DNA of 64,000 bases from an uncultured virus (IMG/VR IMGVR_UViG_3300032167_006623) (Duplodnaviria; Heunggongvirae; Uroviricota; Caudoviricetes): IMG/VR virus record IMGVR_UViG_3300032167_006623; one strand, written 5' to 3'. Numbering within the stretch: position 1 is the first letter of the stretch; the number at the start of each line of letters is the position of its first letter. The notes under the pieces are model-generated. The model did no database searches, was not told the DNA's origin, and was given only the letters and a program-made list of their open reading frames with translations. A program made the position numbers and the translations under genes. This document shows positions 7,537 through 63,757 of the stretch, one piece after another.

Positions 7537-7539
7537 AAT

Positions 7540-47368: not shown

Positions 47369-47572
47369 AGCTATGCTTCGGCATAGCTTTTTCTTTACAA
47401 CAAACAACGGCTGCATTTACGCAGCCGTTATTTGCTTGACAAAATAGAGATGGAAATCAAAACATTTCGTTACTCATTCGTCATTGTAACAAAATTTCAA
47501 CACTTTGTCAAGCAAATAATTGTGAACAATTAGCAAGCGTGACCGCTTGCCGGATTTGTAATAAAAAGAATA

Positions 47573-47602
47573 GTCAGCTGTAAAGACGTTAAAACAGAGA
47601 AA
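47573..47602 (+). promoter_or_regulatory. conserved 30-nt leader motif GTCAGCTGtAAAGACGTTAAAACAGAGAAA (copy 1 of 6)
   Basis: Also at 56512, 57608, 58128, 58984 and 63930, always directly before an RBS. Confidence 0.8.
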
Positions 47603-47615
47603 TGGAGTGTATATC

Positions 47616-47753
47616 ATGTTTGAATATAAGATTTCTTATGAAGAAGCTGTTGAACAGTTTTTAAGCGACCATCCTGAATTCTTTCCTACTGATATTGAAT
47701 ACTGTCCTGATGTATTCCGTCAGATGTGCGAAGAAACAGGCTATGTTGCATAA
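47616..47753 (+). CDS. 45-aa acidic protein (not in ORF track)
   Basis: GGAG RBS; MFEYKISYEEAVEQFLSDHPEFFPTDIEYCPDVFRQMCEETGYVA. Confidence 0.7.
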   Translation: MFEYKISYEEAVEQFLSDHPEFFPTDIEYCPDVFRQMCEETGYVA

Positions 47754-48019
47754 ACACTCCGTATGTGATACGGAAATACTCCGTATTACATACGGATATT
47801 ACTCTTAAATCTAAAGAAATTCCTTTTAAAAGTTTTTAAGAGGAATTTCTATGCAGATTGAAATCTGCACGGGTTTTATTTAAAGCTGATTATTCACTGC
47901 GTACAGGCCGACTGTAGTCATCGTAAATGTCAAACAGGAGCAGCAAGTCACGTGTGCGGCACATTTTGCAGCATTTACCGTAGTGAATGATTATATAAAA
48001 GAAAGGATTGTGTATACTT

Positions 48020-48199
48020 ATGACTACTATTATTGCAATTTTTATGGTTCTTGTTATGGCTGCTGCTAATTATGCAGTTTTCAATGCTGATGATGTAATG
48101 CTTCTCGAAGGTGAATACGAGGATTATTATGGCCGTGACGAGTCTGAACCAGAGGGTTGGACAGAAGAGATGGAAAAAGAATATTATGGTCTTGATTGA
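48020..48199 (+). CDS. small protein, TM plus acidic tail
   Basis: AAAGGA RBS. Confidence 0.6.
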   Translation: MTTIIAIFMVLVMAAANYAVFNADDVMLLEGEYEDYYGRDESEPEGWTEEMEKEYYGLD

Positions 48200-48213
48200 A
48201 AGGAGTAATCACA

Positions 48214-48372
48214 ATGATTGAAGTATCAAAGATGTCCAAGAAAGCACAGAAAGAATATTACAGCAGACAGCGTAATACATGGGGTTCTCTCTCCCCTGTT
48301 ACACGTAAGCCTGCTAAGCCTCAGGCTTACAATCGTGCTAAAATGAAGTCAGCTCTCCGAGCTGACTTTTAA
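48214..48372 (+). CDS. 52-aa basic protein (not in ORF track)
   Basis: AAGGAG RBS; MIEVSKMSKKAQKEYYSRQRNTWGSLSPVTRKPAKPQAYNRAKMK... Confidence 0.7.
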   Translation: MIEVSKMSKKAQKEYYSRQRNTWGSLSPVTRKPAKPQAYNRAKMKSALRADF

Positions 48373-48530
48373 TTTTTTTTGTGTCTGTTTGTATGTCGTT
48401 TTGCATGTACGTATGTATGTCATAATGAATGTCAAAAATAAACACCTGACGGTGTTTCGGATTTATTATAAAAGAATTATAATTCTTTCTCCTGATAATA
48501 AGCGTGAACGCTTATCGGGTGTTTTTTAAA

Positions 48531-49257
48531 GAATGAAGTGGGACGATGGTCCATAGCTGTCATTCGCCGGGTCCGAATTGCCCGTGACAGGCTGCTCCTG
48601 TTGAAGAAATGTGTCGCATTCGCAAGCTTGGCAGTGGCTAATTAAGCTTGCAAATTGGTGTTAATGCTGAATTCGCAGATGAGTTTAACACCGACTGCAT
48701 CGCAGTATAAACAAGCGATAAGAGTGAAGTGGGACGACGGTCCATAGCTGTCACTCGACAGGTACAGATTGCCTGAGACAGCGCTCCTGTCTGAATAAGC
48801 GTTGCAGCCTTTGTAAGCATAGGCTGAGGAAATAAAGAAGCTTACAAAATTCATAACAGATACTGAATCTGCAGGGTAACTCAGTTATGGACTGTTTTTA
48901 ACAGTATAAACAACAATCAGGCAGCATGACTGCCGATATGGGAACATAGCTTAGCGGATAAAGCAAGTCTTTGTAAGGGGTTCAACTCCCCTATCATCAA
49001 CGGATTTGATACATGGACAGTCTACGCGGGTTCGAATCCTGCTGTTCTCACCAGAAGCTGTCAGCAATTGCTGCCGTACGGGCAATGGAGTGCGTACGGA
49101 GCGCAGACGGCGTCGATTGTGCCTGCATGTGCCGAAATCAGTGCCTCCATGCAGGGCGTCGACTTAATTAAGCTCATTACTCATTATATACATTCCTCTC
49201 TCTCCTTTCTGAATACACCGTATGTGCCCTCCCGCATACGGTGTATTTCTTTTTTTC
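48531..49257 (+). ncRNA. about 720-nt structured non-coding transcript or ncRNA cluster
   Basis: GC-enriched, no credible ORF; follows two hairpin elements (48440, 48498); ends in terminator at about 49213-49257. Confidence 0.6.
48940..49053 (+). tRNA. tRNA-like element with expanded anticodon/variable region (possibly Tyr-GTA-derived)
   Basis: Acceptor GGGAACA/TGTTCTC-A-CCA, D arm GCTT/AAGC, T arm GCGGG-TTCGAAT-CCTGC; 114 nt. Confidence 0.6.
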
Positions 49258-49304
49258 ACATTGAAGCATTACATGAAGCTTCAATGTGATATTTTTTTTG
49301 TATC

Positions 49305-49465
49305 AATATTGTAACAAAAATGGGTATCTTTTTGTTACAATATTGCACACTGATTTTTATTGTTACAATATTGTAACAATAAAAGCACCAAAATTGATAC
49401 AATTTTGTTACACGAACTTTTTTGCTACAATTTTGTTACAATTTTGGTGCAAAAATTGTTACACC
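49305..49465. repeat. second TTGTTACAA repeat cluster
   Basis: Same repeat as 45174-45352, next to promoter TTGACA(49467)-N17-TATAAT. Confidence 0.8.
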
Positions 49466-49528
49466 CTTGACATTTGGTGACAAATGTATTATAATGATAC
49501 ATATATCAAATTATGAAGGATGTGCATC

Positions 49529-50515
49529 ATGGGAAAAACAATAAAAGCAATAGCCGACGAACTCGGCATATCCAAACAAGCTGTATACAAGCGTGTTACA
49601 GGCAAGCTTAACACCGTATGTGCTCCACATACATATATGGAGAACAACGTCATGTTTCTGGATGAAGAAGGCGAAGCTATTGTAAAAAATGATTTTAAAA
49701 ATAAACCATGTGCTACTCCCCTATTTCGTACGGAGCAAATACTTATGTCATATGGAGCTAATACGTCACCATATCCAAATCCAACGGTTCCTTACGTACA
49801 ACATACGGAACAGATACGGAATAACTCCGATAATATGCCTCAAAATCCATACGGAGCACTCCCCTATCCTACTCCGAATCAATCCATTCAATACGTATCC
49901 AATACGGAGCATATCCAAACCACTCCTGTTTCAAATACGGAACACTCCGGCATTCCTATTCAAAACACATACGGAACACCGCAGCAATTCACTCCTAATC
50001 CGTATCCCAATCCGTATACGGAGCAATCCGTATCTAATCCTAATATGGATACGCATACGGAGCAAATATCAATTCCTGATACGGAGCAAATACAACCGAC
50101 ATACGGAGCTGATACGGAAGATGTGAATTTATTACGTATGCAGCTTGAGGAAATCAAAGAAAAAAACCATGAAACTGAGATTGAACTTGTTAAAGCTAAT
50201 GCTGAAAAAGAGAAATATGAAGAAATAATCAATCAGCTTAACCAAAGACTCAAAGATAAAGATTCACAAATCATGGAACAGCGTTTGTTAATAGAAAAAA
50301 CCGACAATGAACGTAAGATTTTAACGGCTTCATTGTTTAGAAACAATGAATTTTTAAGGAAGCTATTGCAGCTGCCGTTAGCTAAACGTATTTTTGATTG
50401 GAAAAATATCCAAAAACGACTGATGACAGAGCAGGATGACATTTCAAATGACATAATAGGGGAATCAGATATTGATGTTTCACTATTTGATGAAAATATT
50501 AGTAAAAAGGATTGA
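49529..50515 (+). CDS. pSK1 Par-like HTH/coiled-coil protein
   Basis: KTIKAIADELGISKQAVYKR N-terminus resembles staphylococcal pSK1 Par; C-terminal coiled coil. Confidence 0.65.
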   Translation: MGKTIKAIADELGISKQAVYKRVTGKLNTVCAPHTYMENNVMFLDEEGEAIVKNDFKNKPCATPLFRTEQILMSYGANTSPYPNPTVPYVQHTEQIRNNSDNMPQNPYGALPYPTPNQSIQYVSNTEHIQTTPVSNTEHSGIPIQNTYGTPQQFTPNPYPNPYTEQSVSNPNMDTHTEQISIPDTEQIQPTYGADTEDVNLLRMQLEEIKEKNHETEIELVKANAEKEKYEEIINQLNQRLKDKDSQIMEQRLLIEKTDNERKILTASLFRNNEFLRKLLQLPLAKRIFDWKNIQKRLMTEQDDISNDIIGESDIDVSLFDENISKKD

Positions 50516-50880
50516 TTGGAATGTTGTTTTATACTCAAAAACATGAAATGAATTATCTATGGTTCTTTGCAAAAATGCCTCGTGATGTCTATCACAGAGC
50601 ATTGATTTATTTATTAACCTTGGATGAAGCCTGCTGTGACCATATTTCAGAGATATATGATTTTGAAAATCAGCAAATTATTCCTGAAGCATTGACAAAA
50701 CCTTGGAATACTTCAGTATCCATAAAGACAATGAGGCTTGCTTTTAATCTTTTCACAGGTCATACAAATTGGTCTGATGATAAAAGTCCTGATTTATTCA
50801 GTCCGGCTGAATTGTTTTGTTCAGAATATATGAAATATTACATTGAAGCAGTTAAAATGCGTTATCCTGAGTTTATGTAA
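50512..50880 (+). CDS. DUF6075-like protein
   Basis: DVYHRALIYLL...IYDF...WNTSVS...RLAFNLF. Confidence 0.7.
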   Translation: MIGMLFYTQKHEMNYLWFFAKMPRDVYHRALIYLLTLDEACCDHISEIYDFENQQIIPEALTKPWNTSVSIKTMRLAFNLFTGHTNWSDDKSPDLFSPAELFCSEYMKYYIEAVKMRYPEFM

Positions 50881-51109
50881 ATACGGTTTTACAACCGTTC
50901 GGGGTGTATATAAAAATGATTTTTACTTATTTTTTGATATACATTTCCTTTCGAGTAGGGAACCAGTTGCTTAAAGCAGTGGTTCCTTATTTTTTTTGGA
51001 ACACTTACGTATATTTTACGTATTTAATACGTATGCAAATTTTTTTTCATATCCAAATGCTCAGCATTTGGCGGATTTATTATAAAAAATTTGAAAGGAT
51101 TGAAATGTT

Positions 51110-51799
51110 ATGAGAATCGCTGATACTATTGATATTTTTAAAGAAACTGCAGACGCTGTGTGTGTTACTACAAATGGAATCGTTAAGCGTGACGGTTCAG
51201 CTGTAATGGGTGCAGGTATTGCAAGATTGGCTGATGCTAAATATAAGCTTGCATCAAAGCTTGGTGCAATGCTTAGAAAATCAGGCAATCATTGCTATGA
51301 TATGGGTCTTTATGATAATAAGCATATCGTTACTTTTCCAACCAAAAAACATTGGAAAGATATGAGCAGCATTACGCTCATTAAGCAAAGCTGTCATGAA
51401 CTTGTAGCTATGGCTGACAAGAACAACTGGAGTAATGTTTTGCTGCCGGCTATAGGCTGTGGTCTTGGTCAGCTTGATTTTGAGACACAGGTAAAGCCTG
51501 CAATCGAGACTATTCTTGATGACAGATTTACAATTTGTTTTCTCACCAACGCCCGCCAGTCTGATAAAGCAGGGGAGTGTGCTGATAAAAAATTCGAGCA
51601 TAACGGTTATGTGATTTCCCAGTGCGGAAGCAATCATCATGTTATGATTTCCAAGGATGGAAAGATGGTATTTCATTCACAGGTTGACCACGATATGAAC
51701 CGTGAAGAACTCATCAAAGTTTTTGACGGCTATATCGAGCTCACAAAACACATTGATTTTGCCAAAGAGTTTTACAGAAATGAAGGGAGAATAGATTAA
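51110..51799 (+). CDS. macrodomain ADP-ribose hydrolase (DarG/TARG1-like) with C-terminal extension
   Basis: VTTNG, VMGAGIA, FPTKKHW, PAIGCGLGQL. Confidence 0.85.
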   Translation: MRIADTIDIFKETADAVCVTTNGIVKRDGSAVMGAGIARLADAKYKLASKLGAMLRKSGNHCYDMGLYDNKHIVTFPTKKHWKDMSSITLIKQSCHELVAMADKNNWSNVLLPAIGCGLGQLDFETQVKPAIETILDDRFTICFLTNARQSDKAGECADKKFEHNGYVISQCGSNHHVMISKDGKMVFHSQVDHDMNREELIKVFDGYIELTKHIDFAKEFYRNEGRID

Positions 51800-51800
51800 T

Positions 51801-52046
51801 ATGAACGAATGCGCTTTTTGCAAACATATGGAGTTTCTTAAGGGTCTTGAAGAGGATTTTCAGAATAATCCGAATCGATACAATAAAGAATCCCATACTT
51901 ATGCACTCAAATCAGCATTGATTCATCAGAGCTACTATGAAGGAAGACCAACAGGTAGTTCAACTATTGAATTTTCACTTAATTTCTGTCCTGAGTGCGG
52001 CAGAAAAATCGATGAAACGGAAAAGGGAAGTGCTGTAAATGCTTAA
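51801..52046 (+). CDS. zinc-finger protein
   Basis: CAFC...FCPECGRKI. Confidence 0.7.
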   Translation: MNECAFCKHMEFLKGLEEDFQNNPNRYNKESHTYALKSALIHQSYYEGRPTGSSTIEFSLNFCPECGRKIDETEKGSAVNA

Positions 52047-52563
52047 TACACCAAAATGCTTGAATTCATACAATGATTTCAAGGTGAATGATACTGTATA
52101 TATCTATCATTCTCTTGCAAAACCTGAGCCGTTTATGCGAGGTCGTATCACTATCATTCATGAAAATGATGATTTTACAGTATCATTTTTCGTTGAATGG
52201 GAAACAGGCGATGGTAGTTGGGCTGTTCCTGAGCATGTTTTCAAGACAAAATATGATGTTCTTGATTACATAGAGCGACAAAAAGACGCTGAAAAGAATA
52301 AATACAAGGTCAATATCAGGTCTTTTGATGATTTGATTGATTTTTGTATCCAGACTATCACATATACAAATGACCCTGACTATGCTGCTATTGCGGCTAT
52401 AAAAGAAAAATACGAAGAACTCAAATCAGAAACATCTGAAACCATGATAACGCCTATCGGTATTCTGCCTATAAATGCAGACGGTATGAAAACAGTAGTA
52501 TCTGAGTTAAATAAGCTCCGGACGAAGCTTAATAATATCAGAAAATGCTGCGATAATGATTAA
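52039..52563 (+). CDS. hypothetical protein
   Basis: Shares C-terminal TPIGxLxI motif with 52584 and 53202. Confidence 0.7.
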   Translation: MLNTPKCLNSYNDFKVNDTVYIYHSLAKPEPFMRGRITIIHENDDFTVSFFVEWETGDGSWAVPEHVFKTKYDVLDYIERQKDAEKNKYKVNIRSFDDLIDFCIQTITYTNDPDYAAIAAIKEKYEELKSETSETMITPIGILPINADGMKTVVSELNKLRTKLNNIRKCCDND

Positions 52564-52583
52564 TTTTGAAAGGATTTGATACT

Positions 52584-52952
52584 ATGTCAACAATAACAAT
52601 GGAACATTCCAAGTATTCCGTAAACATTACCAATGAAACCACTATGGAATATCGCATCACACGAGGTGATGAAGATGTAACAAAGGCTCTTGACAGCAAT
52701 TTTGCAAGAGATATGATTTATGAAATTGCAAAGCTCAGAGAAGAAAATGAGCGTCTCAGAACTGCTGTCAATGCTGAAATTACAAATCCTGCAATTATGA
52801 CAAGTCCGATAGGGGATTTGACTATTGATTCAGCAGGTATGCGTAAAGCCATCGATACAATCGACGCTCTTCAGAAAAAACTCAAGCAGGTTGAATCAGC
52901 GGCAGGTTATCTTCAGTATGTGCTGAATGATAACAAAGCAGATAACACTTGA
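52584..52952 (+). CDS. hypothetical protein (paralog of 53202)
   Basis: MTSPIGDLTIDSAGMRKAID. Confidence 0.7.
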   Translation: MSTITMEHSKYSVNITNETTMEYRITRGDEDVTKALDSNFARDMIYEIAKLREENERLRTAVNAEITNPAIMTSPIGDLTIDSAGMRKAIDTIDALQKKLKQVESAAGYLQYVLNDNKADNT

Positions 52953-52969
52953 TAACGAAAGGAGTCCAT

Positions 52970-53170
52970 ATGAGATTCACAAATTTGTTCATCGGATATA
53001 ACGAAATCGAAGACTTCCGTATTCTCATCTGTGCATTTGACACAGAAGAAGCAAGCGAACTTGCTGAAGAATACCGTGTTGATTCAAATATGGACGGACA
53101 TTTCGATATATCCGAACCGACAATGTCTATTGACAACACGCATTTTGACTGTGATTACGTTATTTCGTAA
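52970..53170 (+). CDS. small acidic protein
   Basis: AAGGAG RBS. Confidence 0.65.
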   Translation: MRFTNLFIGYNEIEDFRILICAFDTEEASELAEEYRVDSNMDGHFDISEPTMSIDNTHFDCDYVIS

Positions 53171-53201
53171 GCATTGAAAAAAGCAGAAAAGGAGAATATC
53201 T

Positions 53202-53573
53202 ATGAGCATATCCAATGAAATTGAGCATGGTTATACGGTTGAATTAAAAACCGACCGTATAATTCCTCAGAACCCGTCATATCGCATTACACAGAACGAT
53301 GTTGATGTTACAGCACGCTTTGAAAATTCTTTTACAGAGGCTATTATTAATGCATATTTTAATGAAAAACACGCTAATAGCATCTTGGAGAACAAGAATA
53401 AAAGGCTCACTGAAACAATTGAGACCTATTCTTCCAAAGCAGCTGTCATGACGAGTCCAATCGGCGATTTGACCGTTGATTCAGCAGGTATGAGAAAAGC
53501 AATTGATGAAATCGCTCATCTCAGAAGCGTAATCGCTGATATCAAAACCATTTGTAATATGAATTTACAGTAA
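53202..53573 (+). CDS. hypothetical protein (paralog of 52584)
   Basis: MTSPIGDLTVDSAGMRKAID. Confidence 0.7.
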   Translation: MSISNEIEHGYTVELKTDRIIPQNPSYRITQNDVDVTARFENSFTEAIINAYFNEKHANSILENKNKRLTETIETYSSKAAVMTSPIGDLTVDSAGMRKAIDEIAHLRSVIADIKTICNMNLQ

Positions 53574-53787
53574 AATACGAGGTGATATCATGAATAAAAT
53601 AGTAAGAAACGATGTAACAAGACTTGATAATACTTGTATTCATCGCCAGAATGGTTGCTGCATCAAATGTGGTGAAAGCTGCCCCGGAATAGTAAAATAC
53701 AGTGAAAATAACGATAATAACCTGCCTTGTGATATGGTTGGTTATGAACCCACTGATGAATCGCTGTAAACAGAAAGGACAAACATC

Positions 53788-53982
53788 ATGACCAAAGTAA
53801 AATTCTTTTGGAATAATTCACAAGAAGCTCTTGAAGCTGATGTCAATAAATTTATTGAACAGCTTGAGATTAAGCATTTTGCCGTGAATGTTGTGAGCAT
53901 TTCTTATTCTACAAGCAAAACTGTTTCGAATTATCAGATTGACCACCATTGTTGTTTATGCTATCGTTGTGAAAATATGTAA
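53788..53982 (+). CDS. small hypothetical protein
   Basis: AAAGGA RBS; KVKFF...LEADVNKFI. Confidence 0.6.
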   Translation: MTKVKFFWNNSQEALEADVNKFIEQLEIKHFAVNVVSISYSTSKTVSNYQIDHHCCLCYRCENM

Positions 53983-54031
53983 TTGCTTTGCAATCGGTTT
54001 GTCTCTAAAATCATGAAAAGGAGAATATGGT

Positions 54032-54502
54032 ATGTCAAAAGTATTTATTTCGGGAACAGCAGGTTTTGGAACAGGGAATAAACTCACATCACTTCCTCAG
54101 CCTGTTATGGATATGCTTATGAAGTTAATCCATGATGGTGATGAAATCCTTGTGGGTGATTGTCAGGGTGTTGATACTCTTGTTCAGGAAGTCCTTAAGC
54201 GAGCTAAATATCCTAATGTAACAGTATATTGCTCAGGTTCTACTTGTCGCAATGTTCTTAATTCAAGTTGGCCTGTAAAGCATATTCAGGTTCCAAGAGG
54301 ATACACAGGTAGAGCGTTTTATGCTGTTAAAGATAACGCAATGGCTATAGCTGCTGATTCGGGCATTGCTATTTGGGACGGCAAGTCTGTTGGTACAGGT
54401 AATAACATCAAAAACCTCACTTTCAGAGGCAAAACTGTTACTGTATTCCGTACGGACTTGAATAAAATCGAATGTCATCAGCCTAAAACGCTTGGTGAAT
54501 AA
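54032..54502 (+). CDS. SLOG-superfamily (DprA/YAcAr-like Rossmann) protein
   Basis: VFISG, VGDCQGVD, KDNAM, AIWDGKSVGT. Confidence 0.7.
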   Translation: MSKVFISGTAGFGTGNKLTSLPQPVMDMLMKLIHDGDEILVGDCQGVDTLVQEVLKRAKYPNVTVYCSGSTCRNVLNSSWPVKHIQVPRGYTGRAFYAVKDNAMAIAADSGIAIWDGKSVGTGNNIKNLTFRGKTVTVFRTDLNKIECHQPKTLGE

Positions 54503-54554
54503 ACAAAAGCCAGCCTTTACGGCTGGCACTTTTTTATAGAAAGGACGATGAAAT

Positions 54555-55217: not shown

Positions 55218-55327
55218 TTCAGCCAATTCTATAATAATTTCTGCTTTATCATCTTTATTATCATCTCTTTTAACATAACTCCGTTATGTCGGACTTGTAA
55301 TAAAAATTTTATAAGGAGAGATTTGTA

Positions 55328-55753
55328 ATGGCAAGCTTCAGAGGAGAAAAATACTTTTTAAGCAATATGTACCCATGTCCTGTGACTATTAAGATTAAAG
55401 GTGAGCTTATTACCTTTAAAAGCTCTGAGTCCGTATTTCAGGCACTTCGCAGCCCTGACCGTCTCAGAGAATTTATTCCGCTCAATGGCTTTGAAGCGAA
55501 AAAACACGCTAAAAGCTGTACACGTCGTGCTGATTGGTTTGATGTGAGCCTTGATGTAATGATGTATGCACTCAGATGCAAATTTACCCAAAATCCTGAC
55601 CTTGCGGCAAAGCTCATAGCCATTGATGATGACATTGTGGAAATCAATGAATGGCATGATACTTTTTGGGGCGTTTGTAATGGAGTAGGGGAGAACCATT
55701 TGGGCAAATTGCTTATGCAGCTCAGAGACGAGCTTCGAGCAGCGGCTCATTAA
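55328..55753 (+). CDS. NADAR (YbiA-like) family protein
   Basis: FLSNMYP, ESVFQA, KFTQNPDL, DTFWG, GENHLGKLLM. Confidence 0.9.
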   Translation: MASFRGEKYFLSNMYPCPVTIKIKGELITFKSSESVFQALRSPDRLREFIPLNGFEAKKHAKSCTRRADWFDVSLDVMMYALRCKFTQNPDLAAKLIAIDDDIVEINEWHDTFWGVCNGVGENHLGKLLMQLRDELRAAAH

Positions 55754-55803
55754 GCTATAATCACGGCTATCTTAGCCGTGATTCATTTTAATATGAAAGG
55801 ATA

Positions 55804-56259
55804 TTGACTATGAAATTTGAACACACTATTGAAGCTTTGAGACTTTGTTCTCAGAATTATGACAACTGTAAAGATTGTCCATATGAAAACATCGAACGCT
55901 GCACTGAGCACCTGCATTTCAATGCTCTCATTGAAATCAAGCACGTATCTGCGAAAATCAAAGAATCAAACCCTGATTTCTTTGAGAATTTATCGCAGGA
56001 AACAGCTCAGCTTTACAACCGAGTTAATCGCAGCTTGGATGCTTGTCAGACATTGAGACATTGTGGACGCTGTGATTATTCAAACGGCTGCAGCAATTAT
56101 TCATCTCATAATGGTGAACGTGCATTACGAGCTGATACACTGACAATACTTACGGAATTACATTCCACATATGATGAACTATGTGATGAAAAAGAAGTTT
56201 TGAATGTTATTGAATTCAAACATCAATATACGAAGATGCGGAGGTATAAAAATGTTTGA
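55804..56259 (+). CDS. Cys-rich hypothetical protein
   Basis: Two CxxCxY repeats. Confidence 0.65.
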   Translation: MTMKFEHTIEALRLCSQNYDNCKDCPYENIERCTEHLHFNALIEIKHVSAKIKESNPDFFENLSQETAQLYNRVNRSLDACQTLRHCGRCDYSNGCSNYSSHNGERALRADTLTILTELHSTYDELCDEKEVLNVIEFKHQYTKMRRYKNV

Positions 56260-56455
56260 AAATATCAAAAAATTCATTGAAGAAACCGAAACAATCAAAA
56301 ATAAGATAGAACAGACATCAGAACAGCTCACAGACGAAGAAACAGATTGTTTCGAATATATGCATTTTCATATCGCAAAAGCACTCATACGTGATTTGGG
56401 CAAAAAGGATTCGTCTAAAATCGCAAAAATAATTCTTACCTTGATGGAAGAATAA
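56252..56455 (+). CDS. small hypothetical protein
   Basis: GGAGG RBS. Confidence 0.6.
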   Translation: MFENIKKFIEETETIKNKIEQTSEQLTDEETDCFEYMHFHIAKALIRDLGKKDSSKIAKIILTLMEE

Positions 56456-56555
56456 AAATTTTCACTTCATGGCAAGCAGTTGCTTGTAACTGCCAGAATT
56501 TCAATAAAATAGTCAGCTGTAAAGACGTTAAAAACAGAGAAAAGAGGAATCCATC

Positions 56556-56786
56556 ATGGCTTATGTATCTGAAGAACAGTATAACTACATTCGCAACAAT
56601 CGTGACATCATTGACGGTTGTCTTAATCGCATTGCTGTTACCGATGAACCCGCTGAAATTGAACAGCAGCTTGAAACCCTCAAGCATTACATCGAACAGT
56701 ATGCCGAGCGCAATCGTGAACGAATTCGAGGTGAATTCAAGCCTGAACCCATTCGTTCAATCTCTGATGACGGTCTTGATTTTTAA
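56556..56786 (+). CDS. small protein ending SDDGLDF
   Basis: Preceded by hairpin element, leader motif and GAGG. Confidence 0.75.
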   Translation: MAYVSEEQYNYIRNNRDIIDGCLNRIAVTDEPAEIEQQLETLKHYIEQYAERNRERIRGEFKPEPIRSISDDGLDF

Positions 56787-56819
56787 GAACAACCCTGCTG
56801 TAATACAGCAGGGTTTTTA

Positions 56820-56997
56820 ATATCACTCACGTGATATCGGATTTATATTAAAAAATAACGTTGAAAACAATCATGAATGATTGTCGGAAATGTTATAAAC
56901 AATAATTTTTCCGAAAAATAATGACTGAAAACAGTCATCGGGAAAGTTATAAAAGAACCACGAAAAACAGTTTCACAACTGTCGGAATGGTAATAAA
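56820..56997 (+). repeat. four tandem hairpin-CGG-N9-AAA elements
   Basis: At 56820, 56867, 56921 and 56967; different stems, same architecture. Confidence 0.8.
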
Positions 56998-57045
56998 AAA
57001 TCAGAGGTAACAATGCCTCACAACTTTGAAAGGAAGTATAATTTT

Positions 57046-57342
57046 ATGAAAACTTTTATCGTATCTACAAAGATGATTATTGCCAAGAACATTGCATGTA
57101 AAGCTCTCAAGGCTGCTGACAACAATGACGTTACACACGGTCTTTACAAGAAGGCGTGTATGGACGGCGGCAAGATTGTAATCACAAACATTGCAGAAAT
57201 GCAGGCATGGCAGACAGCTATCAGCGCTTACAAGGCAGCTAACACTACTGAAGGCAAGGTTCTCAGAGTGCTTAAGAGAAATGCTACACTTGGTCTTAAG
57301 AGCCGTCTTGACGCAGCTACAACTCCTGCTACAGCTGCATAA
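57046..57342 (+). CDS. hypothetical protein
   Basis: AAAGGA RBS; N-terminus resembles 58170. Confidence 0.7.
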   Translation: MKTFIVSTKMIIAKNIACKALKAADNNDVTHGLYKKACMDGGKIVITNIAEMQAWQTAISAYKAANTTEGKVLRVLKRNATLGLKSRLDAATTPATAA

Positions 57343-57650
57343 CAACAAATCAACCAACCGTTTAACGGTTGGTTGATTTTTTTTCTTTGTTTGACAGCAG
57401 TCTACTGCAAATCTCCGCTTGCAGACAAGCTTTGATAATTGACCTGATGAATCAGGTCATTGCTTAACAAAACTCACGAGGGTGAGTATTGTTAAGCAAC
57501 ACAGCTATCATTATGTATTCATGACATTAGGATAATATTTTGATTAACGCTTTGCGATTATTTTCTCCAAAAAAACAGACTCCGTCTGTCTGATTTTCAA
57601 TAAAATAGTCAGCTGTAAAGACGTTAAAACAGAGAAACGGAGAGAATACT

Positions 57651-58022
57651 ATGAGAAATTTTGAAAATATGGAAGCAATTGCAACAGAAATCGAAGCAAT
57701 TATTTCAAGAGAAGGGGAGTATCAGAATGAAAATATTGATACCAATGCACCTCTTTTCTTACAGATTGCAAGAAATACACAGGACAAAAAGGCTGTGATT
57801 GAACACATAACAGCTGCATTGACTAACGATAAGCATGAAATTGATGAAATCTATCATTATCTTGAATATAGTGAAGATGAAATAGCATCTGATTACGAGT
57901 TTGAAAAGCATACAAACAACAATGTATCAGATGAAACAGCTAATCGTTTTGCAGCAATAGAACGCATAATCACAGCTGTTGAGGATTGTGGTAAGAAGCT
58001 TCTTGCCACAATTTCTGAATAA
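57651..58022 (+). CDS. acidic hypothetical protein
   Basis: Hairpin element, leader motif, GGAG RBS. Confidence 0.75.
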   Translation: MRNFENMEAIATEIEAIISREGEYQNENIDTNAPLFLQIARNTQDKKAVIEHITAALTNDKHEIDEIYHYLEYSEDEIASDYEFEKHTNNNVSDETANRFAAIERIITAVEDCGKKLLATISE

Positions 58023-58169
58023 AACAATCAAAAAAAACTAATCAGAAGCTCACGCTTCTGATTAGTTTTCCATAGTCTCTGACAGCAAGCGTGACCGCTT
58101 GCCGGATTTGCAATAAAAAGAATAATTGTCAGCTGTAAAGACGTTAAAACAGAGAAAAGAGGAAATGTT

Positions 58170-58472
58170 ATGTTTGTTATTTTTGTAAAAAATTTCATCG
58201 CAAAATGCGTAGTTTTCAATGCACTTAAGTCATACATTGACAATGAAACAGCTGTTGCTCTTCGCAAGAAAGCCCGTGAACAGTGTGATTCAGGCGAATT
58301 TGTACTTGACACATTTGTTGAAGTAGAAGAATGGAATAAGATTCTGCTTGCTTATAACCCTAAGACTAAGGCAGAACAGACCGTTCGTGAAGCAATGCTC
58401 AGAAGTGTCACAAACGAAATCGAAGATGTCAAGTGTATAGAGCTTGACTGGCGTTATGCTTGTATGGATTAA
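58170..58472 (+). CDS. hypothetical protein
   Basis: Hairpin element, leader motif, GAGG RBS. Confidence 0.75.
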   Translation: MFVIFVKNFIAKCVVFNALKSYIDNETAVALRKKAREQCDSGEFVLDTFVEVEEWNKILLAYNPKTKAEQTVREAMLRSVTNEIEDVKCIELDWRYACMD

Positions 58473-58486
58473 GAAAGGATGGGACT

Positions 58487-58882
58487 ATGAAAAATTTTAC
58501 TACAACGGCTAAAATGAGCTATGATGAACTCAAAGGGGTGTTCCCTATGGAAGAAAGCTTCACTGTCAACAATATTGATATTGAATATCTTGGCATCACC
58601 TTTGACGGTGAAATGGCTTATGAATTTGATGGTCTTATTGTTGACAGAGACCGCCTTTTGGAGCTGATTTATGCAATGTGTCTTGCTGATGACATCATGC
58701 TTGATAAAGGCGTTCTGCTCACAGAAGCCACTGAAACTGATGATTTCAGCTTTATTGAAGAACTTCAGAAGCTTGTTTCAAAGCTTGAAACATTTGAATT
58801 CTGTCAGCCAAGAACAGAAGCTCTGGATGAAATTATCAGACTTGCCAGAAAATATGACAGAATACCATCTGTCGAATTGTAA
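58487..58882 (+). CDS. acidic hypothetical protein
   Basis: AAAGGA RBS. Confidence 0.7.
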   Translation: MKNFTTTAKMSYDELKGVFPMEESFTVNNIDIEYLGITFDGEMAYEFDGLIVDRDRLLELIYAMCLADDIMLDKGVLLTEATETDDFSFIEELQKLVSKLETFEFCQPRTEALDEIIRLARKYDRIPSVEL

Positions 58883-59024
58883 CAAATAAAAATCAGAAGC
58901 GAAAAAGGCTTCTGATTTTTTATTTTAAGCCTTACGGCAAGCAGTTGTGAACAACTGCCGGGATTTCAATAAAAAGAACAATTGTCAGCTGCAAAGACGT
59001 TAAAACAGAGAAATGAGGAAATGT

Positions 59025-59435
59025 ATGTATACTTTTAAAATTGAAAATATGACCAAGGATGCAATTCTTGAAGCAATGATTGCTGCTTATAACGAACACA
59101 AGGGTCGTTTTGCAATCAAGCTTTCCGAAGAAGAAACAGCTTTCGTCAGAGCTTTTGAATACAAGCCTGACCACAAAGACTGTGAATGGTTCTTTGTAGA
59201 CGGTACTGAGTATCCATGGGTAAGCGATGATAGTCTTGAAAAGCTTGCTGGTTACTTTGCAAACTATAGCAAAGAAAAGGCAGAGCTTGCTGAAGAAAAG
59301 GCTAAGCTCAGAGCTTATGCAGAGGAACTTAAGGCAATTACTGATAAAAATTCCGAAGAATACCGTGAAAAATTCGGATATTACAGTGATTGGCATAAGG
59401 ACCTGTACGGCAGACGTCCCAGAAACATCATATGA
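59025..59435 (+). CDS. hypothetical protein
   Basis: Hairpin element and leader motif; YSDWHKDLYGRRPR C-terminus. Confidence 0.75.
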   Translation: MYTFKIENMTKDAILEAMIAAYNEHKGRFAIKLSEEETAFVRAFEYKPDHKDCEWFFVDGTEYPWVSDDSLEKLAGYFANYSKEKAELAEEKAKLRAYAEELKAITDKNSEEYREKFGYYSDWHKDLYGRRPRNII

Positions 59436-59532
59436 TAAAATAGCCTGTCAGTTTGATAACTGACAGGTTTTATTTTTTTCTTGAATGTCAAACTTCGATG
59501 CCTTTTTAGTATGCCTGTCTTGATGTCAAAAG

Positions 59533-59741
59533 AAACACCTGACGGTGTTTCGGATTTATTATAAAGAGTTACGATAAAACAAACAAAAATGTTTGTCGGT
59601 TGTAATTCAAAAGATACGATAAAACAAACAGGAATGTTTGTCGGTTGTGTCTTAAAGAAATGCCGATGTTGCGAACGGGGTCTGCTTGACAGATGTCCAG
59701 CTCATAATGCAATCAAGAATGATTGCCGGTGTTTTAAGAAA
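59533..59741 (+). repeat. four clustered hairpin-CGG-N9-AAA elements upstream of ssb
   Basis: At 59533, 59579, 59624 and 59709. Confidence 0.8.
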
Positions 59742-59957
59742 GGAAATGTAATAAGTGAGAAGTAGGTTCCTGCAGGGATGTTCATACCTACATAAACAAG
59801 TTACATTAACATTCTTCGATAGTTAATCCTGAAAGTGAGTTCCTGTCTGGCGATTCATACTCACACACAAAAGAGTAAGCTATCATGTACGTCATAAACA
59901 TAGGGCGGTGTTACATGCCGCCCAAAAATTAAAAACAATTTTTTGGAGGTAATCTAT

Positions 59958-60380
59958 ATGAACATGAACAACTTTTCCGTACTCAGAGGACGTCTTACTG
60001 CTGACCCTGCAATCTTTAACAACAAAGATGGCTCCAGCAAGGTAAAGTTCACCATCGCTTGTGAAAACAACTATAAGAACAAGGAAGGTAAGCGCGACGT
60101 TCAGATGATTCCCGTTGAAGCTTTTGTTAAGGCTGATTACGACAAGTCTCCTTTCGCAAAGATTCACAAGGGCGACAAGGTAAGCGTTGAGTGTTCGCTC
60201 AGAACAAACAACTATGAGAAGGACGGTCAGATGGTTTACTCCACTGTAGTCTTCGTTGAAGGCATTCAGTTCGAGGAAAGCAAGTCCGTTACTGATGCAC
60301 GTCTTGCGGCAAGAGACGCAGACGCTGCAACAGCTGCTGCTGCAACAATTGCAGAAGCTCCTGCTGAGGCTCAGGCATAA
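59958..60380 (+). CDS. ssb: single-stranded DNA-binding protein
   Basis: NNFSVLRGRLTADP, FTIA, KGDKVSVE.SLRTNNYEKDG; lacks acidic tip. Confidence 0.92.
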   Translation: MNMNNFSVLRGRLTADPAIFNNKDGSSKVKFTIACENNYKNKEGKRDVQMIPVEAFVKADYDKSPFAKIHKGDKVSVECSLRTNNYEKDGQMVYSTVVFVEGIQFEESKSVTDARLAARDADAATAAAATIAEAPAEAQA

Positions 60381-60523
60381 GCCTGACCTCGCAGTCACAT
60401 AATAACAAAAGCCAAGGCTTCGGCCTTGGCTTTTTTTTTCAACAGCTCGCAAGCTCGCAGTATCGCTTCGCAGCGATACGGAATTTCAATAAAATATTGA
60501 AATAAAAAAAGGAGAAATGTATT

Positions 60524-60901
60524 ATGTCAACAATAACAGGTTTTATAGGGATAACCGATATAGGAGCCATTTTTGTAAACTTGGAACACACCATTTCTGT
60601 CTCTGATAATGGAACAACACAAGAACATATTGATGAATTATTTGAAATATGTCAAGAAATATGTGAAGACGAAGTTGAAACCATTTACTGTATATTTGAC
60701 AGTAAAATCGACCTTGACACATGTGAAATCATAATATCTGACGGTTCATATGAAAATGGAACAGAACGGATAAACGACAATGCTATGTATGTTTACAGTG
60801 AAGAATATGCTGATTTCATAGCAAGTGTATCCGCAACTCTTGAAAATGGAGAAGAATTCTTCAAAGATTTGAATGAAAATTACTTATCCTTTGACTATTG
60901 A
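60524..60901 (+). CDS. highly acidic hypothetical protein
   Basis: Hairpin element at 60461; AAGGAG RBS. Confidence 0.7.
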   Translation: MSTITGFIGITDIGAIFVNLEHTISVSDNGTTQEHIDELFEICQEICEDEVETIYCIFDSKIDLDTCEIIISDGSYENGTERINDNAMYVYSEEYADFIASVSATLENGEEFFKDLNENYLSFDY

Positions 60902-61241
60902 TTCTGCTATCAATCAATTTTTGACAAATCAGACACGTTTCGTGTCTGATTTTGTTTTCTTATTCTCAGATTAAAATGTAGTTGCAATCTTCAAGGGGAT
61001 GGGGCGGTCTCATCGCCGCAGTTGTAATGAGCTACCGAGTACCTCATTACAACAATAGCTTCCGTTTTCTTGACGTGCCTCATAATCTGATATATACTCA
61101 AAACAGCAACATTTGTTTCTGTTACTATATATAACCTACACGTCCCTGTAAATAATGATTTACAGGGAGAAGACCTTAAACCTAATCTGACCTGTTCGGT
61201 CAGACGGTTTTTCAATAAAACTTGAAAGGATATGTTGATTT

Positions 61242-61526
61242 ATGAAAGAACCCGGATTTGTCAAAGAAGCTCGTGAATATGGTATGTCAGAAAGAGACAT
61301 TGATTTCTTGAAATCAGTATACGAGCGTCATAAGAAAATAAACTCAGATGATAATGACTGTGAGCGATTTTGCAAAACAGCAATACAAGAGGATATTCAT
61401 CCTGATGATATTGCTCCAGCTGTTGCTTTGATTGAAAAACACCGTCATGCTTCTCGTAATAACGATAAGTCTTTTGATATCAATGACCTAAAGAAGCAGT
61501 TGCAGAAAGACTCTGCGACAAAATAA
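61242..61526 (+). CDS. hypothetical protein
   Basis: Hairpin element at 61186; AAAGGA RBS. Confidence 0.7.
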   Translation: MKEPGFVKEAREYGMSERDIDFLKSVYERHKKINSDDNDCERFCKTAIQEDIHPDDIAPAVALIEKHRHASRNNDKSFDINDLKKQLQKDSATK

Positions 61527-61546
61527 TAATAAAACACTGAAAGGAA

Positions 61547-61879
61547 ATGATTATTATGCCAATAATAAGAAAATGTATTCATCTCTCAAGTGATGAAAAA
61601 GTAATGCTTACAAAAGCCGTAACGAACATTATTGATGAGTGTCTCATTGGAACAGATAGTGACATGTATGATATTTACAGACATATCATTGTTAAGCTTG
61701 ATGCGCTCACAATCAAACCTGCCCGTATACCGGGTCATATTGAAGAGCATTATTCTCTGGACATTGTTGGCGGTGAATACGACAGCTGTCTTTTTGCACT
61801 CAGCAATTTTGCTGACAACACAGACATGCTTCAGACTAAAATTCGCAATGCACCGAATGTTTGCGAAAAATATATCTGA
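61547..61879 (+). CDS. hypothetical protein
   Basis: AAAGGA RBS, terminator after. Confidence 0.7.
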   Translation: MIIMPIIRKCIHLSSDEKVMLTKAVTNIIDECLIGTDSDMYDIYRHIIVKLDALTIKPARIPGHIEEHYSLDIVGGEYDSCLFALSNFADNTDMLQTKIRNAPNVCEKYI

Positions 61880-62198
61880 CTTTTTAAGTAACCTATATGT
61901 AAATAAAAATCAGCTGCTCACGCAGCTGATTTTTCTTTTTGATAACTGTGAAACCATAGCAAGTCTTTCAGACTATTGCAGCTTTGCTGCAGTATAATTT
62001 GTCTCCGTGCGGAGCTTCCCGGTCACAGACCAGTTCAGCACCGCCATTCCGCCAAATTATATCCACAGCTTTATAAAACTTATTATGTGACAAGAACCAA
62101 TCCAATCAGAAACGTTGTTTCAATACCCAATAACGAGCCTGACGGCTCGTCGGGTATCAAATAAAAAGCTTATTTGCTTAAATCGGAGGAAATGTAAT

Positions 62199-62405
62199 AT
62201 GTTTATTATCAACTTAATCAAAGCATTGGTTATCGGTATTCATGATGAAATGAAATGGAATGGTCAGAACCTCAAGAATGCTATTCTTGAAGAATACTAC
62301 ATGATTAAAAATGTAATGGGTCTTGACCTTTACGTTAAATACATGAATGGCACTGCTGTTGAAGGCGTTGACTATTTTGAAAATATCGACCATGTTTGCT
62401 GTTAA
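62199..62405 (+). CDS. small hypothetical protein
   Basis: Hairpin element at 62133; GGAGG RBS. Confidence 0.65.
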   Translation: MFIINLIKALVIGIHDEMKWNGQNLKNAILEEYYMIKNVMGLDLYVKYMNGTAVEGVDYFENIDHVCC

Positions 62406-62679
62406 TGATGAACCCGGACGCATTTGCGTCTGGGTTTTTCTTTTTCTTGACCCGTAATTTAATATCTCGTGACTATCTCGTGAAATCAACACGATATTCA
62501 CAAAATAAGCAAAAGATATCAAATTTCATTTTTATATGAATAACGTTTTGTTCTAATACAATAATACAAGTCCTTTTGGGGACTTATTCTTTTGTATTAA
62601 AATTGCAATTCTTGCAAAATGCCCCTGCGGGGCATCGGATTTGCAATAAAAATTCTATATTGAAAGGAAAAGAGAATAA

Positions 62680-63571: not shown

Positions 63572-63757
63572 ACCTCATATTCCGATTTAAGCCATCAGCT
63601 TAAGTCGGAATTTTTTCTGCTTTTAACAAAGCAGCGGGTTGTGTACAAAGGATAAGAAATACGCCAACACATTCTCACAAAAGGTCTCAACCTACGGGTT
63701 GAGATTTTTTTATTTATAATACGACAACATTTATTGCTATTTTCGATTTCTAAGATA

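Follow-up and report, generated by a model that had tools for sequence, protein, structure and literature searches.

A strand-specific hairpin module, most likely the switch for small anti-defence genes on a gut-bacterial conjugative plasmid

Short hairpins with lopsided loops recur in a 64-kb stretch of DNA (64,000 nucleotides, here called the window), which raises the question of what they do, whether they fold as DNA or RNA and on which strand, and whether their loops reveal the direction of conjugative transfer. A sequence-only reading had described the hairpins but missed the CGG…TTT…TAAA flank that stands directly 3' of every one of them. Hairpin and flank form a module some 40 nt long. 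It starts with A-rich sequence, continues with a 7-bp stem of free sequence that closes a loop of 3-5 nt, and ends in CGG-R-TTT-NN-W-ATAAA; the hairpin is its upstream half. The most likely role of the module is to turn on small anti-defence genes of a conjugative plasmid from gut bacteria.

The window contains about 36 copies, on the + strand only. A covariance model of the module (R1) found 35 of them at E <= 0.005, 35/35 on the + strand, and 12 of the 35 were absent from its training set. When only the flank was searched in the window (CGG-N8-TAAA), 32 matches were obtained on the + strand and one on the - strand; 24 of the 32 have a perfect 7-bp hairpin directly upstream and two more have six of seven pairs. 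The whole unit of hairpin and flank is confined to one strand, and in places it forms tandem arrays with a spacing of about 47 nt. One related Oscillospiraceae MAG holds 12 further R1 copies, all on the gene strand, whereas R1 found no copy in 513,822 bases of unrelated Clostridia loci and none in 288,359 bases of viral loci. Within the window, a 30-kb - strand block is free of R1 copies in either orientation, and six copies at 2.7-7.6 kb lie on its far side. The copies, with their R1 scores, and two further features are:

2731..2769, +, module copy, loop TTAC, 38.4 bits
2853..2891, +, module copy, loop TCAC, 36.7 bits; 12 nt past a terminator-like hairpin, gene start 2897 next
3517..3555, +, module copy, loop TGAC, 37.6 bits
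4439..4477, +, module copy, loop TTAC, 36.5 bits; 3 nt past the dUTPase stop codon; paralogue of copy 7537
5731..5769, +, module copy, loop TGAC with a loop-adjacent C·A pair, 30.4 bits
7537..7575, +, module copy, loop TCGC, 37.5 bits; paralogue of copy 4439
40393..40431, +, module copy, loop TAAA, 25.1 bits, outside the training set; between the rep gene and a 746-aa gene
45402..45441, +, module copy, loop AAGAC, 33.1 bits
46189..46227, +, module copy, loop TGTA, 38.7 bits
46320..46359, +, module copy, loop AAGAC, 29.2 bits; RNA read contig from 46367
47530..47568, +, module copy, loop TGAC, 46.5 bits; shared leader next
47849..47887, +, module copy, loop TGAA, 36.5 bits
48437..48475, +, module copy, loop TGAC, 46.2 bits; RNA contig from about 48481-48483
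48495..48533, +, module copy, loop TGAA, 45.8 bits; conserved non-coding RNA-like stretch directly 3'
50879..50917, +, module copy, loop TTAC, 6-bp stem, 29.3 bits
51050..51089, +, module copy, loop TCA, 30.4 bits; 24 nt upstream of the start of a DarG-like macro-domain gene
55270..55307, +, module copy, loop TCC, 28.7 bits; 24 nt upstream of the NADAR gene start
56473..56511, +, weak module copy, 6-bp stem, 6-nt loop, 18.2 bits; with shared leader
56817..57000, +, tandem array of 4 copies, loops TCAC/TGAA/AAAA/TCAC, 40.6, 44.4, 34.5 and 30.4 bits; gene 57013-57342 next
57572..57607, +, module copy, loop TCC, CTG replacing CGG, 22.7 bits; with shared leader
58082..58120, +, module copy, loop TGAC, 44.3 bits; 16 nt past a terminator; with shared leader
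58938..58976, +, module copy, loop TGAA, 42.0 bits; 21 nt past a terminator; with shared leader
59530..59744, +, array of 4 copies, loops TGAC/AAAA/GGAA/AGAA, 44.6, 37.4, 39.1 and 34.9 bits; upstream of the SSB gene 59943-60380
60458..60496, +, module copy, loop TCGC, 33.8 bits; 27 nt past a terminator, start codon 31 nt on
61183..61222, +, module copy, loop TGTTC, 29.2 bits
62130..62168, +, module copy, loop TGAC, 45.4 bits
62616..62653, +, module copy, loop TGC, 33.8 bits; 30 nt upstream of the start codon at 62680
63614..63652, +, module copy, loop TAAC, 33.9 bits; 6 nt past a terminator
63755..63793, +, module copy, loop TTAC, 43.9 bits
63858..63897, +, weak module copy, loop TCGGG, CAG replacing CGG, 16.1 bits, E = 0.024
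3..983, -, MobL-family relaxase gene, running off the left window end (PF18555, E = 1e-45)
60407..60434, +, intrinsic terminator at the end of the SSB transcription unit, RNA contigs stopping at 60389/60401

The stems covary. In the 47 copies of the window and the MAG, 99.1% of 326 stem cells are Watson-Crick paired, no G·T occurs, and each of the seven stem positions shows all four Watson-Crick pair types; the paralogous copies 4439 and 7537 differ by a compensatory exchange of T:A for A:T. The + strand terminator-like hairpins of the window, in contrast, contain G·T in 15 of 224 pairs, or in 9 of 208 if two doubtful hairpins are left out. Thus pairing is selected in DNA and not in RNA, and the earlier claim that the hairpins fold as DNA is borne out. 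It is very improbable that the module is an RNA-level element, for instance a stem-loop that stabilises a 5' end, a site of processing or, in a long read-through transcript, a weak terminator. The downstream hairpins of the tandem arrays do fall inside RNA contigs, and a simple terminator scan lists several copies, owing to the TTT of the flank. However, besides being free of wobble pairs, the stem is followed by CGGR and no U-run, many copies lie only 5-27 nt past a genuine terminator, and the RNA contigs start after the first copy of an array, not before it. Moreover, T…C loops are not known to belong to any class of stable RNA loops.

The loops are indeed as lopsided as had been claimed. 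On the top strand, 20 of 35 module hairpins have a T…C loop (TGAC 6, TTAC 4, TCAC 3, TCGC 2, TCC 2, and one each of TGC, TGTTC and TAAC, from hairpin scan and flank analysis) and only one has a G…A loop (sign test, p = 2e-5); one further loop, CTGACA, reads as TGAC with a C·A pair. Base composition predicts 6.3% T…C loops (binomial p = 1e-15), and the 89 other perfect hairpins of the window comprise eight of each kind (Fisher p = 5e-8 against the module hairpins). The sequence-only reading had counted 19 of 33, which fits the whole window but not the range 47533-62650 to which it was assigned, where 13 of 23 module hairpins are of the T…C type; further copies lie at 2734-7557, 40395, 45405-46341 and 63617-63879. 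The eight additional bottom-strand loops that it had listed (TTCA, TTTT, TTCC or TTCT) were recovered as top-strand TGAA (4), AAAA (2), GGAA (1) and AGAA (1). In the MAG the bias is weaker: four of 12 loops are T…C, one of these four with a C:G closing pair.

A T…C loop on the top strand is a G…A loop on the bottom strand. On the bottom (template) strand, 11 copies form C(GNA)G or C(GNNA)G, and one more a corresponding pentaloop; on the top strand none does. Such mini-hairpins are an extra-stable form of DNA (PMC13037366 and PMC3201870). The proposal that the bottom strand is favoured for folding stands as far as the loop types are concerned (11 against none), but is weak by calculated energies: nearest-neighbour DNA folding of the hairpin alone favours the bottom strand by 0.15 kcal/mol only, and folding in an 80-nt context shows no difference between the strands (p = 0.54).

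The position of the copies points to initiation of transcription. A Shine-Dalgarno sequence and start codon follow within 60 nt in 18 of 36 copies, and a terminator-like hairpin ends at most 80 nt upstream in 10 of 36, which leaves no space there for a different promoter. Terminators are enriched in the module region (62 compared with 11.4 expected). The genes behind the copies encode SSB, a DarG-like macro domain, NADAR, RNase H, dUTPase, a HipA-like kinase and many unknown proteins, and the anti-defence-type genes of the region are all on the + strand. We consider it somewhat more probable than not that the module is the promoter of small terminator-bounded units which together form the establishment and anti-defence regulon of the plasmid.

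This reading agrees with the RNA data, which are assembled contigs from three metatranscriptome runs of one study and as such show neither strand nor true ends. Contigs start at 59573/59577, 56961 and about 48481, i. e. at positions 23-27 after the stem; one further contig begins at position 18, and the beginnings of others fall at 33-39. At the SSB array they run from 59573/59577 to 60389/60401, and at the array 56817..57000 they cover 56961-57346 and 56923-57337, so that they end at the foot of terminators (60389/60401 and 57337/57346). In three elements a conserved non-coding stretch begins at the same distance past a copy. Transcript starts about 23-24 nt past the stem are thus weakly indicated, yet such a start would cut the Shine-Dalgarno sequence of three copies (2856, 45405, 56967), where it occupies positions 17-26.

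In the proposed mechanism the stem-loop would act as folded DNA, arising either by extrusion from supercoiled molecules or on single-stranded DNA, with extrusion of a cruciform from such short stems assumed by analogy. The hairpin would occupy the place of the -35 element, with its centre near -32, and might be recognised by its shape, the conserved flank by its sequence. As suggested by the loop bias, the hairpin of the template strand may be the more stable one, like in the early promoters of phage N4, where physiological supercoiling suffices for extrusion and stem bases other than the conserved ones may vary as long as they pair (PMC4496689). The reader could be the host RNA polymerase together with a plasmid factor, or another polymerase; the ORFs of the window, itself a section of a longer contig, yielded neither a recognisable sigma factor nor an RNA polymerase.

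Another possibility, which we regard as rather unlikely, is a weak sigma-A-type promoter with the loop and closing pair as -35 (nTNACn), a 17-bp spacer and TAAAAn as -10. Extrusion under supercoiling would then destroy the -35 element, and the genes would be on only in freshly made, relaxed DNA. The geometry fits, as starts at 23-24 would place the loop at -34 to -31 and T12-A13 at -12/-11, and TGAC, the most frequent loop, forms the core of TTGACA. In addition, an N4 hairpin placed between -35 and -10 of an E. coli promoter silenced it until gyrase was inhibited (PMC4496689). However, the match to the sigma-70 consensus is poor: a scan flags one of the 29 copies in 45-64 kb, the T at the -7 equivalent is present in 6 of 35 copies, and the second loop base, corresponding to the conserved G of the -35 element, is variable. 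Nor does this explain the conserved CGG and TTT.

The alternative that the sequence-only reading had itself offered, primase or sso-type initiation signals, is improbable; on the transferred strand they would prime complementary synthesis at many points. The G4 origin and RSF1010 ssiA, both with mini-hairpins, are likewise built as a hairpin whose 3' flank is conserved (PMC13037366), and the motif as written is on the top strand, which would be the transferred strand if the plasmid is pLS20-like. Two copies (4442 and 7540, i. e. 4439..4477 and 7537..7575) moreover lack a + strand gene downstream and point at convergent genes, which also counts against the promoter reading. Yet the other observations run the opposite way: the copies accompany + strand gene starts and ribosome-binding sites, RNA contigs begin right after them and extend in the sense direction to terminators, the 30-kb - strand block lacks copies, priming sites would hardly be expected in arrays with a spacing of about 47 nt, and no primase was recognised in the window.

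A further earlier claim was that the bottom strand is transferred and that oriT lies to the right. The analysis does not support this. The transferred strand cannot be deduced from the module loops, because a hairpin of the template strand can also act in double-stranded DNA that is supercoiled, as it does in phage N4 (PMC4496689). For pLS20, the studied example of a plasmid with a MobL relaxase, it is the non-template strand of genes like these that is transferred (PMC8708921). In the window, both the relaxase gene and the large conjugation-like block lie on the - strand, and from the same gene layout the pLS20 rule predicts the top strand, which by this analogy is the more likely one; F-like plasmids follow the opposite rule (PMC11541004). 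No oriT was recognised within the window.

It is nevertheless conceivable, though unlikely, that the modules are promoters on an incoming single strand, with the bottom strand transferred, oriT right of the window, GNNA/GNA hairpins forming on entry and RNA polymerase starting before the complement is made. The template-strand loops would suit this, since such mini-hairpins are known at the N4 promoter and at single-stranded initiation sites (PMC13037366). So would the + strand genes of the module region, rich in anti-defence and SSB-type functions: where leading regions of plasmids were surveyed, the anti-defence, SSB and toxin-antitoxin families were without exception oriented so as to permit transcription of the T-strand (PMC11541004). 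It is opposed by the pLS20 rule, by the missing oriT, by the six copies beyond the - strand block, and by the nature of known single-strand promoters, which are large stem-loops rebuilding the -35 and -10 boxes (PMC12672017) and not 18-nt hairpins. We still prefer the hairpin-bearing promoter.

How does such a promoter compare with known systems? Integron attC sites share with the module a structure conserved without sequence, strand-specific folding and a location between small genes of one orientation, and in both the gene content of relatives differs cassette by cassette. Here, however, variants are joined at terminators and within the shared leader rather than in the hairpins, the stems are perfect without extrahelical bases, and the conserved flank is on one side only; no scanned ORF of the window matched an integrase family. 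The primase signals of phage G4 and RSF1010 ssiA likewise combine a hairpin bearing a mini-hairpin with initiation in the adjoining single-stranded flank (PMC13037366), but they occur once or twice per replicon and independently of gene starts, whereas the module has 36 copies at + strand gene 5' ends.

The Frpo/ssi single-strand promoters (classes 1-3; leading regions of F, ColIb-P9 and pESBL) also place structured DNA before establishment and anti-defence operons including ssb (PMC11541004 and PMC12672017). They are large stem-loops, mined at < -75 kcal/mol, with the boxes rebuilt in the stem; the hairpins here have 18 nt and about -5.6 kcal/mol, with the boxes outside. EGeRS1 and EGeRS2 of the pLS20 family are similar as repeated regulatory sequences that mark a regulon of establishment operons; these operons are oriented against the conjugation genes, the plasmid has a MobL relaxase, and EGeRS1 is rich in inverted repeats (PMC8708921). 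Compared by their descriptions, they have no evident sequence feature in common with the module: EGeRS1 is 420-750 bp long, GC-rich and without a constitutive promoter, and EGeRS2 combines a sigma-A promoter with operators for the repressor Reg576 (PMC6294495).

The early promoters of phage N4, read by its virion RNA polymerase, differ in that their hairpin lies at -17 to -5, whereas the module hairpin ends about 22 nt ahead of the apparent start. N4 stems also contain conserved bases, while no stem position is conserved here. The loops here are mostly of 4 nt, N4 has three promoter copies compared with 36, and an N4-like polymerase was not found in the window. What they share is a short template-strand DNA hairpin, in N4 with a 5-7 bp stem and a small sheared G·A loop (PMC4496689 and PMC13037366), G…A loops being on the template strand in both; and a stem whose non-conserved bases are free if paired, like the 7-bp stems of free sequence here (PMC4496689). 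The N4 hairpin can extrude from supercoiled DNA with the help of SSB (PMC4496689 and PMC13037366), a protein that is also encoded in the module region.

The hairpins and their loop bias were found as the sequence-only reading had described them. In the 35 curated copies of the motif, the top-strand loop begins with T in 27 cases, and its last base is C in 22 cases and A in 11; T…C loops occur 20 times and G…A loops once. No such asymmetry is seen among the remaining 89 perfect hairpins of the window (8 T…C vs 8 G…A). The numbers given in that reading hold for the whole window but not for the interval 47533-62650 to which they had been assigned, as only 23 copies lie there, 13 of them with a T…C loop.

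The earlier reading missed a conserved flank directly 3' of every hairpin. The stem is followed immediately by C (34/35), G (31/35) and G (35/35), then by a purine and by T-rich positions 5-7, counted from the end of the stem (T in 22, 26 and 28 of 35 copies); position 12 is T in 29/35, and positions 13-15 are A in 34, 35 and 35 of 35. The three bases 5' of the stem are mainly A. A search with the flank alone (CGG-N8-TAAA) returned 32 matches on the + strand and one on the - strand. Directly 5' of 24 of the + strand matches lies a perfect 7-bp hairpin, two more have a hairpin with 6/7 pairs and one is a copy with a 6-bp stem; the other five lie inside coding sequence and have no hairpin. R1, a covariance model of the module trained on 23 copies, detected 35 copies in the window at E <= 0.005, all on the + strand and 12 of them outside the training set, and its top-scoring match on the - strand reached 17.4 bits.

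Pairing in the stems was assessed in an alignment of 47 copies from the window and from contigs of a related Oscillospiraceae MAG (L001 and two others), fitted to the model, with half of the rows outside the training set. Of the 326 stem cells 99.1% are paired, and all four Watson-Crick pair types are seen at each of the seven stem positions. Not one of the 326 cells holds a G·T (G·U) pair, so the tolerance of G·U that is a hallmark of structured RNA is absent from these stems. The copies found with the flank alone give the same picture. Two paralogous copies, at 4439 and 7537 within a duplicated segment of ~110 nt, differ by a compensatory change from T:A to A:T. In contrast, the terminator-like hairpins on the + strand of the window do contain G·T: 15 of 224 pairs, and still 9 of 208 when two doubtful hairpins are left out. 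The stem pairing, the compensatory change and the lack of G·T thus show that the pairing is under selection, as Watson-Crick DNA and not as RNA.

The proposal that the hairpins fold on the bottom strand was borne out in part. A T…C loop of 3-4 nt with a C:G closing pair is present in 11 of 36 copies, plus one with a 5-nt loop, and the 3-4 nt cases read on the bottom strand as C(GNA)G or C(GNNA)G; no copy has this form on the top strand. A C:G closing pair round a G…A loop of 3-4 nt defines the DNA mini-hairpins of the GCGNAGC / GCGNNAGC type, which two papers describe as extra-stable (PMC13037366, PMC3201870) and the first of them places at the early promoter of N4, in the G4 origin and in ssiA. 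Nearest-neighbour folding of the hairpin alone favoured the bottom strand by 0.15 kcal/mol (bottom better in 20 copies, top in 6, equal in 9), but in an 80-nt context there was no strand difference (p = 0.54); according to the review PMC13037366, nearest-neighbour models miss the stability of mini-hairpins. In the relative, 4/12 copies have T…C loops and one of these (1/12) has the C:G closing pair. A preference for the template strand is therefore plausible from the loop sequences in the window, though not conserved in the relative.

The window (G+C ~38%) has the appearance of a segment of a large conjugative plasmid from gut Clostridia. Its main features are as follows.

Features of the window
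Running off the left end, - strand: MobL-family relaxase gene (PF18555, E = 9.8e-46, residues 5-326)
7.7-37.6 kb, - strand: 30-kb block with topoisomerase III, a weak VirB4-like match, a lysozyme-bearing 1453-aa protein and a 2055-aa protein
After this block: Rep3 initiator with iterons, and an actin-like partition gene
2.9-7.4 kb and 45 kb to the right end, + strand: many small genes
3890-4438, + strand: dUTPase
6085-7428, + strand: HipA-like kinase
51110-51799, + strand: DarG-like macro domain
54555-55217, + strand: RNase H1
55328-55753, + strand: NADAR

The small + strand genes also include SSB and DUF6075, and several genes of this regulon point to a role in countering ADP-ribosylation of DNA and other defences. 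Judged by eye, the 2055-aa protein has a membrane, low-complexity appearance, and for a 746-aa protein the Atlas indicates a surface-type protein; a PDB sequence search with both returned nothing. A candidate regulator of the regulon is a 331-aa HTH protein whose nearest relatives come from Oscillospiraceae and Lachnospiraceae assemblies. The gene of this protein is preceded, within 49300-49500, by a perfect TTGACA-17-TATAAT promoter (49467-49495) and, further 5', by an 8-nt box repeated at least five times and by a perfect palindrome of 13 bp. The similarity of the protein's N-terminus to the HTHs of sigma region 4 (E = 0.008) and SpoIIID (E = 0.02) is weak and does not reach the cut-offs. 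A TGTCACAC-type box, adjoined by an RHH gene (36826-37188), recurs several times 5' of the large - strand operon, and more than 15 iteron-like repeats are found 5' of the Rep3 gene, both in the region of 37650-38000 and 38300-39050. The duplication of ~110 nt (4330-4477 and 7428-7575) takes in the dUTPase 3' end and a motif copy; its second member, a gene fragment, lies at the convergent border to the - strand block.

The copies occupy short intergenic gaps, and in 18/36 cases a Shine-Dalgarno sequence and start codon follow within 60 nt. Terminators are five-fold enriched in the region, and a terminator-like hairpin lies within 80 nt 5' of 10/36 copies, at some of them only 5-27 nt away, which leaves no space for another promoter. 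Three metatranscriptome runs of one study yielded RNA contigs that cover the region in patches, and gaps in this cover carry no information; one DNA-like run covers the whole region. The longer RNA contigs start at 59573/59577, 56961 and ~48481, that is 23-27 nt past a stem, and contigs stop where a terminator has its foot (60389/60401 and 57337/57346). Further contigs start at positions 18, 33 and 39. As contigs do not prove ends or strand and a single study gives no independent replication, the starts 23-27 nt past a stem are only a hint of transcript starts. In addition, a conserved non-coding stretch begins at an equal distance past a copy in three elements: the window, L001 and a further locus, L145. 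Taken together, position, terminators, RNA contigs and the conserved stretch make a promoter of terminator-bounded units the best reading of the module. A transcript start at position 23-24 would put the hairpin at about -41 to -24 and the loop at the site of the -35 element.

The conserved stretch itself (48516-49050 on the + strand of the window, L001 from ~4229 on, - strand of L145) begins ~20 nt past a copy, has no notable + strand ORF and shows the best RNA-contig cover in the window (48483-48975, 49012-49173). Its part at 48940-49050 (+) matches the full Rfam tRNA model with 43.2 bits and has good acceptor, D and T arms; its anticodon arm, however, contains an insertion of 25 nt, its variable region is long, and ARAGORN calls no tRNA. 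A shared leader of ~30 nt follows five copies of the window (47566-47600, 56509-56545, 57605-57640, 58118-58160, 58974-59015), a similar one follows three copies of the relative (L001 from 3246, 8874 and 9639 onward), and it occupies the site expected of an operator or 5'-UTR element. Comparison of 45000-64000 with run X4 revealed a related DNA variant with cassette-like gain and loss of whole units. Its joints (60438>60911, 57611>58040, 58157>59433, 52085>52444) lie at terminators or in the shared leader, which suggests cassette shuffling by recombination between the repeated promoter and leader sequences.

At E <= 0.01, R1 had no match in other Clostridia loci (513,822 bases in all) and none in viral loci (288,359 bases). 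The motif was found in one Oscillospiraceae MAG, where L001 carries nine copies, each of them on the gene strand, and two other contigs carry three; these copies have other stems and loops and the flank CGG or CGA. Among 151 genomes of the family of this MAG, 16 had 1-4 matches, and those inspected outside the MAG look like T-tract terminators and are never clustered. Hence, within what could be searched, the module is confined to one plasmid lineage. A near-identity search of 47500-62700 against plasmid and phage collections gave no match, and a genome-contig search with the DUF6075 protein found no relative. Genome searches with the 331-aa family returned mostly loci sharing the N-terminal HTH alone, in which the motif is absent; among these loci it is present on L001 and other contigs of its MAG only. 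None of 33 loci from a viral-contig search with the shared-leader pattern has the motif.

It had been proposed from the G…A loops on the bottom strand that this strand is the one transferred, with oriT to the right of the window. The argument has no bearing on the transferred strand, because N4 hairpins function in supercoiled duplex DNA with SSB (PMC4496689); loop asymmetry by itself cannot assign it, as this case shows. Gene orientation leads to two analogies, which disagree. In a large survey (PMC11541004), leading-region families of anti-defence, SSB and toxin-antitoxin genes are all oriented for transcription from the T-strand, by which rule the bottom strand would be the T-strand here. 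Yet the layout of the window is that of pLS20 (PMC8708921): the - strand holds the relaxase and the large block, the + strand the establishment-like genes, and by this analogy the top strand would be transferred. The MobL-family relaxase, a trait of pLS20-type transfer polarity, is present, and this family-specific precedent probably outweighs the survey; by analogy, the top strand would be the better candidate, while the bottom strand keeps an appreciable chance. No oriT-like feature was recognised in the window, and the intergenic regions near the relaxase contain no pLS20-style GC-rich block beside an inverted repeat. The relaxase gene is preceded by two small ORFs, neither with a family match.

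For the switch-on of anti-defence genes directly after entry, so far little understood in conjugative plasmids of Gram-positive gut bacteria, two solutions have been studied, the ssDNA promoters of F-type plasmids and the regulatory sequences of pLS20/p576, and both look different from the module. A far-reaching interpretation, which we consider rather unlikely, is that the module represents a new class of bacterial promoter in which recognition is by shape for a free-sequence DNA hairpin at -35 and by sequence for a short conserved flank. The plasmid would then sense in which physical state its DNA is, be it single-stranded, freshly replicated and relaxed, or supercoiled; the whole anti-defence regulon would fire in the first minutes that follow conjugative entry and at no other time, with no classical repressor involved; and the logic of phage N4 would have been taken up by a plasmid. 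As a mark of every regulon unit, the module would reveal the set of establishment and anti-defence genes of such plasmids, here mainly proteins of unknown function. Compact and easily scanned, it would also offer a clean test of small DNA hairpins as promoter elements beyond phage N4.

Several known signals were compared with the module and rejected. A sigma-70/sigma-A consensus promoter has TTGACA, a spacer of 16-18 nt and TATAAT with A at -11 and T at -7; the equivalent of -7 is T in only 6/35 copies, and a sigma-70 scan (77 sites vs 64.7 expected) flagged 1/29 copies in 45-64 kb. Intrinsic terminators have a U-run after the stem-loop, where the module has its CGG; real terminators sit directly 5' of 10 copies. 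Integron attC sites are imperfect repeats with extrahelical bases, R''/R' boxes and an integrase, whereas the stems here are perfect and no integrase was matched among the scanned ORFs. The 30 different stems among 35 copies speak against an operator for a dimeric repressor, the lack of stem conservation against REP/MITE-like repeats, and the tandem units, unlike in sequence, against a type III antitoxin RNA array. The idea that the A-rich 5' flank pairs with TTT over a bulged CGG was dropped, as the six flanks examined show no covariation.

The N4-type promoter has a short template-strand hairpin with a G…A-closed loop, centred at -11 (-17 to -5), and conserved stem bases. In the module, the 11 copies named have a loop of this form on the bottom strand, while the remaining two thirds have other loops; its stem has 7 bp and no conserved position, and the RNA contigs, which are weak evidence, start ~23 nt past it. 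N4-type promoters also have a dedicated single-subunit RNA polymerase; no polymerase family was matched among the scanned ORFs (Pfam, NCBIfam, PHROGs, PDB) of the window, which is only part of a longer contig. Frpo/ssi promoters are large stem-loops that rebuild the -35 and -10 boxes as duplex in ssDNA, unlike the module, whose hairpins have 18 nt and a mean of -5.6 kcal/mol (~-9.9 kcal/mol in the 80-nt context, on either strand). In Frpo/ssi promoters the transferred strand also serves as template for the genes that follow, a point on which the two analogies above disagree for the module. A literature search on ssDNA promoters, leading regions and DNA hairpin or cruciform promoters of Firmicutes conjugative plasmids brought up N4, Frpo classes 1-3 and the regulatory sequences of pLS20/p576, and nothing that resembles the module. 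We file it as a structured-DNA promoter or establishment signal, apart from the N4, Frpo and pLS20/p576 families.
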